A stretch of DNA of 64,000 bases from Escherichia coli (GTDB lineage Bacteria; Pseudomonadota; Gammaproteobacteria; Enterobacterales; Enterobacteriaceae), in NCBI RefSeq assembly GCF_013315695.1, contig NZ_CP054353.1; one strand, 5' to 3'. The notes below the pieces were generated by a model. It made no database searches. It saw only the letters and a list, made by a program, of their open reading frames with translations, and was not told where the DNA came from. This document shows, piece after piece, positions 9,569-13,149 of the stretch. How positions within the stretch are numbered: the stretch's first letter is position 1; every line of letters starts with the position of its first letter. The position numbers and the translations under genes are program-made.

Positions 9569-11551
9569 TTACCATTGATAACTCACGAAAATTTTTCCGT
9601 TACGACCATCCTGTGGGATGCCTTGCGGCGACCAGTACTCTTTATCGAAGGCGTTGCCCAATACCAGAGTAGTGGTCATGCCTTTGAGCGCCTGTTGTCC
9701 TTGATAACTGACGTAAAAATCATTCACACCATAGCCAGGTTGTTTGCTGTAACTGCTGCTGATATGTGTTGAGCGATCGGCAAACGTACCGACCCAACCA
9801 ACAGAGAAGCCACTGTGAGCGATCGGAATATTCAGGGTACTGGTAACGGTATCCGGGTTAATGCTGGAGATATATTCCCCAGTATCGGTGTCTTTGCCGC
9901 GGGTACGGTTATAGGCCACATCAAGGCTAAACAGATCAGTGGTATATTTCGTCATTACATCCCAGCCCCAGATTTTGGCGTTCGGGACGTTATACGACAT
10001 AGTTGTCGCCGCCGCGAAATCGACGGTCGTGGAGATGTAATCCTTCGCTTTGGTATCAAAGTAGCTGGCTTTAAATTCCAGAGCATCATTGGACAACATC
10101 AGGTCATCAAAACGCAGCCCAAAACCGTACTCCTGAGTTTCGTTAGTTTCCGGACGTAAGTTCGGGTTTGGCACCCAATAGTTGGTATAGAAGCGACCAA
10201 TCGAGAAGTGCTTAGAATCGTTATACATTTCGCCCATCGTCGGGGCGCGGAATGCCTGGGCATATGAGCCAAATAACATCAGCCAGTTGGTCGGGTTGAT
10301 AGTCATCCCCGCACGAGATGACCATTTGTCAGCATCAACATCTTTGTAGCCGTCGCTGCTACCGCGATAACTGTCATAGCGGGTTCCGCCAAGCAGGGTA
10401 ATCGGCAGATCGCGTAAGGTGATCTCATCCTGTAGCCAACCAGAGCTAAAATCGATTTTTGCTTGCGGGAAGCCCGTGGTCGCGCCACCCGGATGTTGTT
10501 CCTGACGATAATACTCACCGCCATATGTCAGTAAGTGAGAAGCGAAACTGTCGGCAAATAGAGTGGAACGGTTCTCCAGCCTGGCTCCTTTTGTTATCTG
10601 TTCACGATACTCGCCGGAACTCCCCGTGTTTTGCGCATTAATACGGACTTCCGACCAGTAAATTTTTGCATCTGCATTTAACCAGTCGTTGCCCTGCGGG
10701 GCGAGTTTATAAGAAAGCTGCGCATCGCGTTGAATTGTTGAACGATCAACCATCGGGTTGCTGCTATCAGAAGCCTCAACAGTCTGCGGATTTTTTGGTT
10801 CACGCGCGTCGTTGTTGTAGTAACGCACTAAACCGCTCAGAGACTGGGCTGAATCAATTTGCCAGGTCCCTTTCGCCAGCATGTTATTAATGGACTCGTC
10901 ATTCGGCGCGGTTTCACCATTGCTCTGGCGTAAATCACCCCGATCGCGACTGGACCAGGCCACAATACCATCCAGATTTTCAGTTCGCCCAAACGCGCTC
11001 GCGCCTAATCCCAGGCTATGGTCCCCCGTGCCGCCAGTACCAAAGACACGAAAACCACTACTTTGTCCTTCCTGCAATAAATCTTTTGCATCGACCGTAT
11101 CGTAGGAGATCACCCCACCCAGCGCGCCACTGCCATACAGTAATGCTGAAGGTCCGCGAACAATCTCAACACGCTTGATCAGCGCCGGATCAAGAAAAGT
11201 ACCATTCAGGTGTCCGGTATCCGTTCCCTGGCGAACACCATCGACAAGAACCAGCACGCCGCGATGATCATAGCCACGCATATTTACATCCTGACCGTTG
11301 GTTCGTCCGGTACCATCAAGAGTAATTCCAGGAACATGACGCAGCAAATCAGTGGCTGAAGTAGCAGTTTGATTTTCAGGAGCGGAAGTGTCGATAACGC
11401 TGACCATCATAGGCGCTTCGAAGGAACTACGTGCATTCCCCGTTGCCGTAACGGTCATGGTTTCAGTAGCAAAAGCAAATGTTGGCAAGGTGGCAGAAAC
11501 AGCCAAAGCCAACAAACTCAAACGCAACGAGGTAAATTGCGGACGTGACAT
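9569..11551 (-). CDS. chuA: TonB-dependent outer-membrane heme/hemoglobin receptor ChuA (ShuA)
   Basis: 660-aa ORF with signal peptide, N-terminal plug region and C-terminal terminal-F beta-barrel residue (…VSYQW); Fur box upstream. Confidence 0.9.
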   Translation of the reverse strand: MSRPQFTSLRLSLLALAVSATLPTFAFATETMTVTATGNARSSFEAPMMVSVIDTSAPENQTATSATDLLRHVPGITLDGTGRTNGQDVNMRGYDHRGVLVLVDGVRQGTDTGHLNGTFLDPALIKRVEIVRGPSALLYGSGALGGVISYDTVDAKDLLQEGQSSGFRVFGTGGTGDHSLGLGASAFGRTENLDGIVAWSSRDRGDLRQSNGETAPNDESINNMLAKGTWQIDSAQSLSGLVRYYNNDAREPKNPQTVEASDSSNPMVDRSTIQRDAQLSYKLAPQGNDWLNADAKIYWSEVRINAQNTGSSGEYREQITKGARLENRSTLFADSFASHLLTYGGEYYRQEQHPGGATTGFPQAKIDFSSGWLQDEITLRDLPITLLGGTRYDSYRGSSDGYKDVDADKWSSRAGMTINPTNWLMLFGSYAQAFRAPTMGEMYNDSKHFSIGRFYTNYWVPNPNLRPETNETQEYGFGLRFDDLMLSNDALEFKASYFDTKAKDYISTTVDFAAATTMSYNVPNAKIWGWDVMTKYTTDLFSLDVAYNRTRGKDTDTGEYISSINPDTVTSTLNIPIAHSGFSVGWVGTFADRSTHISSSYSKQPGYGVNDFYVSYQGQQALKGMTTTLVLGNAFDKEYWSPQGIPQDGRNGKIFVSYQW

Positions 11552-11585
11552 AGCGATTCTCCATGAGGAAAATAAAAAATGCTGG
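11552..11585 (-). promoter_or_regulatory. chuA translation-initiation region with U-rich tract next to the SD (candidate FourU RNA thermometer)
   Basis: Minus-strand mRNA reads ...auuuuuuauuuuccucauggagaaucgcuAUG; a U-run adjacent to the GGAG Shine-Dalgarno; a FourU thermometer has been reported for shuA (from memory). Confidence 0.4.
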
Positions 11586-11841
11586 CTGCCTGGGTTAATA
11601 CCGGGGTGGCTGGCGAAAAATAAATTTATTTACAATTCAAATGATTAGATATCACCACGGGAAGCTATTAGCGTATATATCCCGTAAAATTGCCGAATAT
11701 TTCTGATAATTCAGCAAAAGCACGCCCTCTTTGTCAGGCAAAGTAGTACGCCACGTCTGAAGTGAAGAGTGCTGTGCGTTTTCCCTTACAAAAGATATGA
11801 TTTTGTTATCCATGATGTCATATTTTGTTAAACTCAAACGT

Positions 11842-11860
11842 GATAATGAGAATTATTATC
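11842..11860. promoter_or_regulatory. Fur box (iron-responsive operator), about 290 bp upstream of chuA
   Basis: gataatgagaattattatc matches the Fur consensus GATAATGATAATCATTATC at 17/19 positions. Confidence 0.75.
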
Positions 11861-12192
11861 GATCAATTTTTTATGATCAAGCTTTTTTTAACCGCCATTA
11901 ACACAATAAACAGGGGGTTATGAAATCTATCCAGCATCCAGAAAACCATCCTGTGTTTATGGCTATCCCCCCACAACCTCATCACAAAACGTTGTCGTTA
12001 ACAGTGATAATTTTCTCTTCTCTTTGCTCTGCAAGCCGCGATATCTCCGGGTTCTCAGCTTTTTCCCGCGCTGAAATTTAATCGGTAACAAGAACATTAG
12101 CTGACGAAGCATCTTGATAAAAATCAAAAATAAATACGCTTGTAACGCCTTGCGTATTGAATCGACGGTTGTATTTCATATATAACTCAAAT

Positions 12193-12211
12193 GATAATCA
12201 TGATCATTCTC
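12193..12211. promoter_or_regulatory. Fur box upstream of chuT
   Basis: gataatcatgatcattctc matches the Fur consensus at 16/19 positions; 24 bp before the ATG at 12235. Confidence 0.7.
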
Positions 12212-12234
12212 AATTTGATAAGAGTTCTCACATT

Positions 12235-13149
12235 ATGCCAAGGATCATCACCAGGCCGTTTCTTTTTTCCCCACTGACGTTATGTATTTCAGCCGTGGCC
12301 TCTGCCGCGAAGACCATGGTAAAACGAAAAAAATTGTTTACGGCATTACTGGCTCTTAGCTGGACTTTTAGCGTAACGGCTGCCGAACGTATCGTGGTCG
12401 CAGGAGGATCGCTGACGGAGCTAATCTACGCGATGGGCGCTGGCAAACGCGTGGTTGGTGTCGATGAAACGACATCTTATCCACCAGAAACCGCCAAACT
12501 GCCGCATATTGGTTACTGGAAACAACTCAGCAGCGAAGGCATTTTGTCACTTCGCCCGGATAGCGTAATTACCTGGCAGGATGCCGGGCCACAAATTGTG
12601 CTCGACCAACTACGAGCGCAGAAAGTCAACGTCGTCACCCTGCCGCGTGTGCCTGCCACCCTTGAGCAGATGTACGCCAACATTCGCCAACTGGCAAAAA
12701 CGCTACAGGTTCCTGAACAAGGCGAGGCGCTGGTGACACAGATCAACCAACGCCTGGAGCGAGTACAGCAAAACGTGGCGGCCAAAAAAGCCCCGGTTAA
12801 AGCCATGTTTATTCTCTCCGCAGGCGGAAGTGCGCCACAGGTTGCCGGTAAAGGCAGCGTCGCGGACGCCATTCTTTCGCTTGCCGGAGCAGAAAACGTC
12901 GCTACCCACCAGCAGTACAAAAGCTACAGCGCGGAATCGCTGATTGCGGCTAACCCTGAAGTGATTGTCGTCACCTCACAAATGGTCGATGGCGATATTA
13001 ATCGGCTACGTTCTATTGCCGGAATTACCCACACCGCCGCCTGGAAGAACCAGCGCATTATCACCGTTGATCAAAACCTGATTCTGGGAATGGGTCCGCG
13101 TATTGCTGATGTCGTTGAGTCTTTACACCAGCAGCTTTGGCCGCAATAA
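12235..13149 (+). CDS. chuT: Periplasmic heme-binding protein ChuT (ABC transporter substrate-binding); start uncertain
   Basis: ORF 12157..13149. The ATG at 12235 lies just after the Fur box; an internal ATG at 12316 (MVKRKKLFTALLALSWTFSVTAA-ERIVVAGG) gives a canonical signal peptide and may be the true start. Confidence 0.8.
   Translation: MPRIITRPFLFSPLTLCISAVASAAKTMVKRKKLFTALLALSWTFSVTAAERIVVAGGSLTELIYAMGAGKRVVGVDETTSYPPETAKLPHIGYWKQLSSEGILSLRPDSVITWQDAGPQIVLDQLRAQKVNVVTLPRVPATLEQMYANIRQLAKTLQVPEQGEALVTQINQRLERVQQNVAAKKAPVKAMFILSAGGSAPQVAGKGSVADAILSLAGAENVATHQQYKSYSAESLIAANPEVIVVTSQMVDGDINRLRSIAGITHTAAWKNQRIITVDQNLILGMGPRIADVVESLHQQLWPQ

Follow-up and report, generated by a model that had tools for sequence, protein, structure and literature searches.

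The region between chuA and chuT is the divergent control region of haem uptake in Escherichia and Shigella, and it operates as the literature already describes. The 61-codon ORF in its chuA leader appears from sequence comparison not to be a gene, and the long leader itself is probably a remnant of a hemP-receptor operon; we consider this account, taken as a whole, highly probable. The region is 100% identical to that of E. coli 2014C-3075, and the neighbours annotated around it are chuS, chuA, chuT, hutW, hutX, chuY and shuU. The allele in the window (the whole 64-kb stretch of DNA analysed here) is of UPEC/B2 type, with 99.5% identity to SE15. A combined ChIP-exo and expression study found chuASTUVWXY to be Fur-regulated in the pathogenic strains 042, CFT073 and Sakai. 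Control by iron through Fur and by temperature through an RNA hairpin is already known here, and the interpretation given in the initial annotation adds nothing new: it re-describes a textbook-level virulence control region, in which iron, temperature, sRNA and Rho inputs bear on haem uptake. The functional statements made below draw on published work with S. dysenteriae, EHEC Sakai and UPEC; the analysis itself is computational. Feature coordinates are collected in Table 1.

Table 1. Features of the chuA-chuT region, in positions of the 64-kb window.
Feature	Position	Strand	Description
chuA CDS	9569..11551	-	660-aa ORF, ATG at 11551; TonB-dependent haem receptor; RefSeq annotation of the 100%-identical strain 2014C-3075
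FourU RNA thermometer	11549..11580	-	5' arm AUUUUCC 11573..11567, loop UCAU, 3' arm GGAGAAU 11562..11556
Conserved leader 3' block	11552..11631	-	Strongly conserved; corresponds, in other genera, to the hemP stop (AAATAA 11631..11626) and the spacer between hemP and the receptor gene
Distal anti-SD strand AGCAUUUUUU	11583..11574	-	In the 3' block
Motif GGCAGCCAGC	11590..11581	-	In the 3' block; resembles the published HmuP-responsive element
Motif CGCCAGCCAC	11614..11605	-	In the 3' block; resembles the published HmuP-responsive element
Motif CGCCAGCC	11614..11607	-	In the 3' block
61-codon ORF	11652..11837	-	TTG start, in-frame ATG 11813; fast-evolving leader middle, in the place of hemP
chuA promoter	11842..11880	-	-35 TTGATC 11880..11875; -10 AATAAT 11857..11852; Fur box 11842-11860; TSS ~11843
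53-codon ORF	11920..12081	+	GGGGG Shine-Dalgarno-like run; variable part of the spacer
FNR-consensus palindrome TTGATAAAAATCAA	12114..12127		Perfect palindrome, candidate site; centred 72.5 bp upstream of the chuT TSS
chuT promoter (putative)	12157..12192	+	-35 TTGAAT 12157-12162; -10 TATAAC 12181-12186
chuT Fur site	12187..12211	+	16/19 box 12193-12211 (transcript +1..+19) and overlapping 15/19 box 12187-12205
chuT 5' UTR	12193..12237	+	42 nt, putative hsp17-like RNA thermometer; AUUCU 12206-12210 predicted to pair with SD AGAGU 12221-12225
chuT CDS	12235..13149	+	Periplasmic haem-binding protein; RefSeq annotation, identical strain and Sakai

Both Fur-consensus matches reported in the initial annotation were recovered: 11842-11860 reads GATAATGAGAATTATTATC, agreeing with the consensus GATAATGATAATCATTATC at 17 of 19 positions, and 12193-12211 reads GATAATCATGATCATTCTC, agreeing at 16 of 19. 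These are the only sites of at least 16/19 on either strand of the whole 64-kb window, and a further 15/19 site (12187-12205) overlaps the second. Shuffling the window 20 times gave, on average, 0.0 matches at 16 or more and 0.1 at 15 or more; both boxes are far above chance expectation. The chuA promoter was placed by promoter scan, Fur scan and the Sakai dRNA-seq start transferred by alignment, and its block is without differences among six Escherichia alleles. Its Fur box spans the -10 element and the mapped +1, a start taken from the published work and not from the window's strain. The chuT promoter was read off the sequence and positioned by the published shuT start, and its block is kept in five Escherichia alleles. 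In Shigella, the shuT Fur site was located in silico and defined with reporters, and lies at +1 to +19 with three mismatches, the transcript starting 42 nt before the ATG (PMC5458455); these numbers map exactly onto 12193-12211. Fur-Fe would repress both promoters, at the -10 and start site of chuA (11842-11860) and at +1 to +19 of chuT (12193-12211).

The long chuA leader proposed in the initial annotation is borne out, with the Fur box 291-309 nt upstream of the ATG and published dRNA-seq in agreement with a leader of 291 nt. In EHEC Sakai the chuA +1 lies 291 nt upstream of the ATG (Sy & Tree 2022, PMC9002310), and it aligns to position 11843, on the border of the 17/19 Fur box. The chuA transcript would carry a leader of about this length. 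Within it would also lie an inhibitory stretch (+177 to +217), a Rho-dependent stop (+271) and, some 15 nt before the SD, a site for activation by CyaR. The published Rho stop maps to about 11572 and the inhibitory/rut stretch to 11666..11626. The predicted CyaR pairing site is 11595..11575 (duplex -17 kcal/mol, using nt 1-51 of CyaR only), in agreement with PMC9002310; RNAduplex of whole CyaR against the leader gave meaningless long-range pairings, the best 25-nt match using the CyaR terminator stem, and was discarded. The window shares its promoter, TSS context and predicted CyaR site with the Sakai chuA 5' UTR used in the sRNA and Rho experiments, and the last 100 nt (11533-11632) have no differences, but the leader middle differs by about 25%, and the inhibitory stretch is its most diverged part, with 20 differences in 50 nt. 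The UPEC chuA leader has been reported to retain CyaR activation, to lack ChiX repression and to be expressed 55% more highly, no explanation being offered there of how CyaR activates (PMC9002310). An ops/RfaH element, sought in the leader since RfaH has been reported to influence chuA, was ruled out, as GGCGGTAGNNTG has no match with at most one mismatch in 11552-12234.

The suggestion that the U-run beside the SD forms a FourU-type thermosensor is upheld by an Rfam match above the gathering score and by published mutagenesis, and the mention in the initial annotation of such an element in shuA was correct (Kouse 2013, PMC3660397). The SD GGAG (11562..11559) lies 7 nt before the ATG, and the U-run UUUUUUAUUUUCC occupies 11579..11567. 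AUUUUCC and GGAGAAU form a 7-bp hairpin (-6.1 kcal/mol at 37 C, z = -2.8) in which UUUU 11572..11569 pairs with AGAA 11560..11557 of GGAGAA. The element matches RF02597 (shuA_thermo) with 60.1 bits against a gathering score of 58 (E = 5e-8), and agrees with the consensus at all 32 positions (model positions 1-32). Elsewhere the score is equalled in E. albertii and falls to 41.3 in Pseudocitrobacter, and the model has no match in six further genera. Hairpin, SD and position are those of the S. dysenteriae shuA and E. coli chuA thermometer (PMC3660397), the identity over the 32 nt to the AUG being with the Rfam consensus; there are no differences inside the element, and in that system too the leader is long and lies behind a Fur-controlled promoter. 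Stabilising and destabilising point mutations established that the hairpin confers control between 25 and 37 C (PMC3660397), and the U273A mutant in chuA likewise supports the FourU element (PMC9002310); U273, or -19, maps to 11570, within the hairpin arm. The last 32 nt of the leader would fold as the FourU hairpin, with GGAG hidden at 25 C and opened at 37 C. Structure prediction at 25 versus 37 C, proposed earlier as a check, did not reproduce this, as the nearest-neighbour model gives no FourU melting between 25 and 42 C.

The 42-nt leader of chuT corresponds to a second RNA thermometer in the literature, one missed in the initial annotation. Function as an hsp17-like thermometer has been published for shuT (Wei et al. 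2017, PMC5458455), and the chuT leader would act in the same manner. In its predicted fold the whole UTR makes one weak hairpin, with internal loops and a U-rich anti-SD strand paired to the SD; only two of the pairs are G-C, U15.G32 and U16-A31 pairs are present, and the AUG at 12235 is partly paired. At -3.5 kcal/mol (z = +1.1) its stability is not above that of shuffles. The published mutated residues U+15 and U+16 map to 12207 and 12208. The likeness to S. dysenteriae shuT extends to the start at 42 nt, the 19-nt Fur site at +1 to +19 with three mismatches, and the predicted weak hairpin in which two pairs are G-C and U+15/U+16 are paired to the SD, and is a likeness to the numbers and features stated in PMC5458455, not one of aligned Shigella sequence.

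The 61-codon ORF in the chuA leader, whose coding status had been left open, does exist as a mechanical ORF and is resolved here as non-coding. It has no Pfam match at E <= 10 and no NCBIfam match. Over six Escherichia alleles its end and length vary (about 61, 49-57, 40, 45-53 and 34-56 codons, by the start chosen), with a 1-nt deletion in one allele, a 1-nt insertion in one and a 125-nt insertion in one, and the variable columns are spread evenly over codon positions (13/12/15 and 19/17/15). In most allele pairs the divergence of the leader middle amounts to 0.5-0.9 times chuA dS, and positive selection on this hypervariable stretch was rejected as its divergence is about neutral by that measure. 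The window and Sakai differ there by 2.7 times chuA dS, and this elevation, being found in that pair only, fits recombination. Four comparisons in the ORF frame, small and not independent of one another, gave dN/dS of 0.17-0.76, which speaks faintly against complete neutrality.

In other genera the same interval encodes HemP. An intact ORF with the C-terminus GKL(I/L)LTK is present in all 73 loci from outside Escherichia, bounded by a Fur box at about -300 and by the receptor ATG; the three examples tested match PF10636 (E 1e-16 to 1e-17), and the loci are same-strand hemP-hemR-hemS-hemT operons. The intact hemP ORF is absent from all six Escherichia loci. Published hemP-hemR (hemPRSTUV) operons of Yersinia and other Enterobacterales (PMC6158557) resemble the window in having a Fur box about 300 nt upstream of the receptor and a U-tract that pairs with the SD; in contrast, Escherichia has no intact hemP in cis and its leader ORF fails PF10636, the hemP domain (...LLG..G...I.H.GQ.Y.LR.T..GKLILTK), and S. 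dysenteriae was described in the Yersinia paper as without a hemP homolog at the locus. An intact HemP paralog, ydiE, lies elsewhere in the genome in 5422 of 5426 E. coli genomes. The 61-codon ORF sits, as hemP does, between a Fur-controlled promoter and the receptor gene, with interval and length as in the 73 loci, and nhmmer against a 67-locus profile detects homology in the flanks (3' block E = 2e-17, 5' block E = 6e-7), the similarity of the hemP start region without the Fur box being weak (E = 0.004 in Sakai, 0.15 in the window). Since this interval encodes HemP elsewhere and Escherichia keeps only its flanks, the long chuA leader is probably a decayed hemP, as judged from position and flanks. 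From an ancestral hemP-receptor operon the promoter, Fur box, hemP start region, stop and spacer would have been retained, and the hemP body would have decayed at about the neutral rate. No HemP was recognised in the body of the leader: a custom HMM of the 73 syntenic HemPs scores negative, a frameshift-tolerant profile-to-DNA alignment is no better than shuffles, and global DNA alignment stays near z = 0, where a Budviciaceae hemP used as control reaches z = 25. HemP homology of the ORF from a likeness of LPDKEGVLLLNYQKY to LLGKEGRVIIEHDGQHY was likewise unsupported by Pfam, NCBIfam, the custom HMM and both alignments. Between genera chuA has reached saturation at synonymous sites (pS 0.71-0.77), so that a neutral hemP relic is expected to be unrecognisable. 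Such a relic offers an evolutionary reason for the length of the leader. It would also account for the 9-fold rise in expression on truncation at +217, since that construct is exactly the ancestral hemP-receptor spacer, and the differences between the UPEC and EHEC leader middles are suggested to follow from its evolving at about the neutral rate.

The absence of detectable hemP similarity in three tests, and the weakness of the start-region similarity once the Fur box is removed, would also be met if the leader middle were foreign DNA that replaced hemP during rearrangement to the divergent chuAS / chuTWXYUV arrangement. The Escherichia locus is a mosaic, in which the divergent ChuT shares only about 33% identity with HemT from the other genera, and the 2.7-fold figure for the window and Sakai suggests recombination. 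We nevertheless regard replacement as unlikely: the length of the leader has been kept (Fur box at -307 to -309 in Escherichia and -291 to -325 in most other genera), the distance from the Fur box to an ATG..ATGGATAAC equals that to the hemP start, AAATAA falls on the hemP Lys-stop in the alignment, and neutral decay alone, with synonymous sites saturated, predicts the loss of similarity. A translated uORF with an unconserved peptide, comprising the 61 codons or the first 28 or so from ATG 11813 and modulating Rho loading or chuA, seems very improbable. None of the six Escherichia alleles interrupts the frame over those first codons, dN/dS in the frame is below 1 in the four comparisons (0.17-0.76), and the Sakai ORF stops just before the published inhibitory/rut stretch (+177 to +217). 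Against this, neither 11813 nor 11837 is preceded by a Shine-Dalgarno, the ATG is replaced by GTG in one allele and by ATT in another, variation is even over codon positions (13/12/15), the C-terminal halves differ through frameshifts, neither Pfam nor NCBIfam gives a family match, and the published leader analysis names no uORF.

How the SD of chuA is masked also admits another reading, in which the main mask is a longer distal helix of AGCAUUUUUU (11583..11574) with GGAGAAUCGCU (11562..11552), placing GGCA over the AUG, and CyaR activates by pairing to the distal strand. ViennaRNA favours this fold in a 50-nt context, at -9.6 kcal/mol, compared with -7.1 kcal/mol for a distal helix two pairs shorter, with AUUUUCC kept unpaired, and -6.1 for the FourU hairpin in isolation. 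The distal pairing of U-tract and SD is the RNAalifold consensus of 73 sequences (97.5% of cells paired, versus 35-54% when slid), the SD is paired at three or more of its four bases in 53 of 54 distinct sequences, and the best CyaR duplex spans 11595..11575. One pair in the helix is compensatory (CG:51, UA:7), but this is one covariation event, in the alignment from which the structure itself was computed. The distal fold would leave the published mutations U-19C, U-19A/U273A and C-17A in its loop, but their effects on expression are those predicted from the proximal hairpin. That the U273A mutant is still activated by CyaR (PMC9002310) is compatible with the distal helix and no demonstration of it. 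We hold this combined proposal for masking and CyaR action to be unlikely, and retain the proximal FourU hairpin.

The GCCAGCC and GGCAGCCAGC motifs of the conserved spacer are invariant or nearly so in 73 sequences and overlap the CyaR site. They resemble the HemP/HmuP-responsive element (HPRE) of the HemP/HmuP system, CCCGCAAGCCAGCCGACAGCCAGCCAGCG as quoted in PMC9131926. YdiE is a core, Fur-regulated HemP paralog, and these side results raise the possibility that it acts on the conserved GCCAGCC motifs. A joint reading can be built on this, in which the leader is a fossil hemP whose last 75 nt or so, perfectly conserved, are a surviving HemP/HmuP-responsive element served in trans by YdiE, and in which CyaR activates chuA by pairing with this element, also the family-wide distal anti-SD strand; we offer it tentatively, as improbable in all its parts together.

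The 53-codon ORF on the plus strand was rejected as a gene, as its ATG is missing in three of five Escherichia alleles and its frame is broken in Sakai; a family search gave only a chance match. For chuA of APEC O1 an FNR site, TTGTAATGTTTCAA, has been predicted (PMC5481319); it was rejected for the present locus, having no match with two or fewer mismatches in the window. A perfect FNR palindrome (TTGAT-N4-ATCAA) is found at 12114-12127, one of two matches in 64 kb against 0.14 expected, the other lying upstream of ccp, and it is kept in five of five Escherichia alleles. Class I FNR sites are centred near -61.5, -71.5 or -82.5, and the chuT box is 1 bp off canonical. The sequence makes 12114-12127 a candidate for FNR binding, and raises the possibility that FNR acts on chuTWXY, the anaerobic haem-degradation operon.

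The region between chuA and chuT had been annotated as carrying two Fur-consensus matches (17/19 and 16/19), and both are present exactly as described. The first occupies positions 291-309 nt ahead of the chuA ATG, where about 290 nt had been proposed, and is overlapped by a sigma-70-like promoter, TTGATC-17-AATAAT, on the chuA strand. When both strands of the full 64 kb were scanned by 19-mers, no further site of at least 16/19 appeared; a 15/19 match overlaps the chuT box, and 20 shuffles of the window gave means of 0.0 matches at 16 or more and 0.1 at 15 or more. A combined ChIP-exo and expression study lists chuASTUVWXY among the Fur-regulated genes of 042, CFT073 and Sakai (PMC10164565). 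The long chuA 5' UTR implied by the initial annotation is in agreement with dRNA-seq in Sakai, where the mapped +1 gives 291 nt (Sy & Tree 2022, PMC9002310), and the shuA leader measures 278-342 nt (Kouse et al. 2013, PMC3660397). A U-run and GGAG do stand immediately upstream of the chuA ATG, and their proposed role as a FourU thermosensor is borne out by a match to RF02597 ('shuA/chuA 5' UTR thermoregulator', Rfam; 60.1 bits, gathering score 58), identical to the consensus at 32/32 positions, and by published mutagenesis: with a stabilising U-19C mutation and destabilising mutations, the hairpin was shown to place both shuA and chuA under post-transcriptional 25/37 C control (Kouse et al. 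2013, PMC3660397). The observation is confirmed and its interpretation supported, and both were already known; what we add is the assignment of the leader ORF as non-coding, a reasoned but unproven origin for the leader, and two leads, one joining YdiE to a motif like the HmuP-responsive element (HPRE) and one an FNR box. The segment of the window between chuA and chuT matches E. coli strain 2014C-3075 at 100% identity. Of 5426 complete E. coli genomes, 2236 carry the chu locus, and its alleles fall into two main classes, whose identity to the window over 11400-12400 is at least 99% in one and 90-95% in the other; the window allele is of the B2/UPEC-like class (99.5% to SE15) and EHEC Sakai of the other.

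Features of the chuA-chuT region, with published Sakai leader features placed on the window by alignment
Feature	Window position	Strand
chuA (chuS downstream)	9569..11551	minus
RF02597 match	11549..11580	minus
3' block shared with hemP intervals	11631..11549	
Sakai U273	11570	
Sakai +271	11572	
Predicted CyaR pairing, ACCCAGGCAGCCAGCAUUUUU	11595..11575	
CGCCAGCCAC, GGCAGCCAGC	11581-11614	minus
Sakai +177..+217	11666..11626	
61-codon ORF, TTG start	11652..11837	minus
UCUUUUGUAAGGGAAAACGCACAGCA	11770-11795	minus
Sakai +1	11843	
First Fur box	11842-11860	
TAAACAGGGGGTTA	11907-11920	
53-codon ORF	11920-12081	plus
FNR consensus TTGATAAAAATCAA	12114-12127	
15/19 Fur match	12187-12205	
Second Fur box	12193-12211	
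shuT transcription start	12193	
42-nt chuT leader	12193-12237	
chuT ATG (followed by hutW/chuW, hutX, chuY, shuU)	12235	plus
Codons ahead of and into KRKKLFTALLALSWTFSVTAA	12235-12318	
In-frame ATG within chuT	12316	
Second TTGAT-N4-ATCAA	31528-31541	

The 61-codon ORF noted in the leader is present, and six Escherichia alleles (window, Sakai, two other E. coli, Escherichia sp. and E. albertii) were compared across it. It has no Shine-Dalgarno sequence and no Pfam or NCBIfam match, its end varies among the six alleles because of 1-nt indels, its in-frame ATG is replaced by GTG in one allele and by ATT in a second, and one leader carries a 125-nt ERIC-like insertion. Variable columns show no preference for any codon position (13/12/15 in codons 1-28, 19/17/15 in the rest), and in most allele pairs the divergence of the leader middle amounts to 0.5-0.9 of the chuA synonymous rate. 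A translated uORF would draw some encouragement from dN/dS values in the ORF frame that fall faintly below 1 (0.17-0.76), from counts that are small and non-independent, but we give it a low probability and conclude that the ORF is not a protein-coding gene. Window and Sakai differ at a background of 0-6 positions per 50 nt, mostly 0-3; 51 differences fall within the 200 nt of 11633-11832 and none within 11533-11632. This island has 2.7 times the chuA synonymous divergence for that pair, against 0.5-0.9 times in most others, a pattern which suggests recombination within the locus. A second island, 11932-11981, has 12 differences in 50 nt, and both islands adjoin stretches with zero differences. 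ERIC-like repeats (core ...GAATCCCGATGAGCTTACATAAGTAAGTGATTCGGGTGA...) are inserted in one Escherichia sp. leader (retrieved locus L003, 2249-2373), and several Buttiauxella loci carry one or two copies in the stretch that separates hemP from the receptor gene; besides L003, the loci with such repeats upstream of the receptor ATG are L038, L041, L042, L051 and L069. These insertions shift the Fur box to -419..-515.

A ChuA search with one genome per species gave 80 loci from Enterobacteriaceae and Budviciaceae, in nearly all of which a Fur box (15-18/19) precedes the receptor ATG by about 300-325 nt. In all 73 analysable non-Escherichia loci the interval from Fur box to receptor encodes an intact small protein ending ...GKL(I/L)LTK, and the three such proteins tested match Pfam hemP (PF10636; E 1e-16 to 1e-17). 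These loci are same-strand hemP-hemR-hemS-hemT operons; a divergent chuT is found only in Escherichia, and ChuT is just ~33% identical to their HemT. Intact hemP is absent from 6/6 Escherichia loci, and S. dysenteriae has been reported to have no hemP homolog at this locus (PMC6158557). When a DNA profile of 67 hemP intervals was compared with the Escherichia leader, only two blocks aligned: a 5' block of promoter, Fur box and hemP start (TATGACA-TCATGGATAACA vs tatgtcacgtatggataaca; E = 6e-7), and a 3' block of the hemP Lys-stop AAATAA and the spacer to the ATG (E = 2e-17). Without the Fur box the start-region match is weak (E = 0.004 in Sakai, 0.15 in the window).

A protein HMM, a frameshift-tolerant alignment and a global DNA alignment all fail to show hemP similarity in the ~165-190 nt between these blocks; in the last, z is near 0, and a distant real hemP used as control reaches 25. 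Such a result would fit a history in which other DNA replaced hemP in the leader middle. Synonymous sites of chuA are, however, saturated between Escherichia and other genera (pS 0.71-0.77), so that a hemP decaying at the neutral rate should no longer be recognisable. In-situ decay of hemP is the simplest reading and probably the correct one. Our limited literature search found no statement that the leader is a former hemP, and hemP and uORFs both go unmentioned in the principal study of this leader (Sy & Tree 2022, PMC9002310). That study placed a Rho-dependent stop at +271 and strong inhibition in the stretch +177..+217, and the +217 truncation raised expression 9.2-fold and abolished Rho sensitivity (PMC9002310). 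This truncation begins at what would be the hemP-stop relic, and therefore leaves exactly the ancestral spacer.

Within the spacer, the block CGCCAGCCACCCAGG...CCCAGGCAGCCAGC shows little or no variation across 73 sequences, and the same holds for CGCCAGCCAC and GGCAGCCAGC in 73 receptor leaders from many genera. The block resembles the HPRE quoted for Chromobacterium chuR, CCCGCAAGCCAGCCGACAGCCAGCCAGCG (PMC9131926), and the two motifs are like the HPRE of rhizobia and Chromobacterium; Escherichia, however, has no adjacent hemP. It does have ydiE, an intact HemP paralog ending ...GKLLLTK (K-12, locus L084, 3614-3805, outside the window), labelled 'PF10636 family protein' in K-12 and hemP by PGAP. 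It is found in 5422 of 5426 E. coli genomes, compared with 2236 for chu, and a Fur-like box (15/19) lies at -41; the gene is a member of the core Fur regulon (PMC10164565). We speculate that YdiE might be a trans-acting partner of the leader motifs. CyaR activates chuA through a site ~15 nt upstream of the SD (Sy & Tree 2022, PMC9002310), and the best predicted pairing of its single-stranded part (-17 kcal/mol) agrees with that site and overlaps the second conserved motif. The terminator stem of CyaR is strongly complementary to UCUUUUGUAAGGGAAAACGCACAGCA (-22.9 kcal/mol), a match that is probably irrelevant since the stem is base-paired within CyaR. The U-tract directly 3' of the second motif can pair with the SD, and this distal helix is the RNAalifold family consensus (97.5% of cells paired vs 35-54% when slid; one compensatory pair) and the predicted minimum for E. 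coli in a 50-nt context (-9.6 kcal/mol). Published point mutations act as the proximal FourU hairpin predicts (PMC3660397, PMC9002310), and for this reason the modelled distal helix is kept as a hypothesis only.

Between the two promoters, a perfect FNR consensus, conserved in 5/5 Escherichia alleles examined, is centred 72.5 bp upstream of the chuT start. Two perfect copies of the TTGAT-N4-ATCAA pattern are present in 64 kb, where 0.14 would be expected, and the other one, ~110 bp ahead of ccp (yhjA, cytochrome c peroxidase), an FNR- and OxyR-activated gene, provides an informal positive control. ChuW and ChuY are anaerobic haem-degrading members of chuTWXY, so FNR control would make sense, and on this motif evidence the box could place chuTWXY under FNR. 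We found no paper describing the site. In APEC, FNR is reported to bind a 'chuA promoter' fragment, with lower chuA-lacZ expression in an fnr mutant; the weak FNR site predicted there is absent from the window (PMC5481319). The plus-strand 53-codon ORF in this spacer was rejected as a gene, being unconserved among Escherichia alleles. TAAACAGGGGGTTA is identical in 5/5 Escherichia alleles and the sequence immediately downstream is highly variable; since the ATG that follows is unconserved, it does not represent a conserved ribosome-binding site.

The initial annotation noted just the Fur box on the chuT side and missed a second thermometer. The shuT start has been mapped 42 nt upstream of the ATG, with a Fur site at +1..+19 that has three mismatches and corresponds to the second Fur box of the window; in reporter assays the 5' UTR with this site confers iron- and Fur-dependent regulation, and the 42-nt leader is an hsp17-type RNA thermometer (Wei et al. 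2017, PMC5458455). The chuT leader is predicted to form a single weak hairpin as described for shuT, with two G-C pairs only, in which U15 and U16, mutated in that study, pair with G32 and A31 of the SD region. Its stability is not above that of shuffles (z = +1.1), as would be expected of a thermometer, although the computation alone proves nothing. The annotated ChuT start, which corresponds to the shuT start used experimentally, lies 27 codons ahead of a typical signal peptide, KRKKLFTALLALSWTFSVTAA. Just ahead of this peptide the window allele has an in-frame ATG, which is GCA in Sakai.
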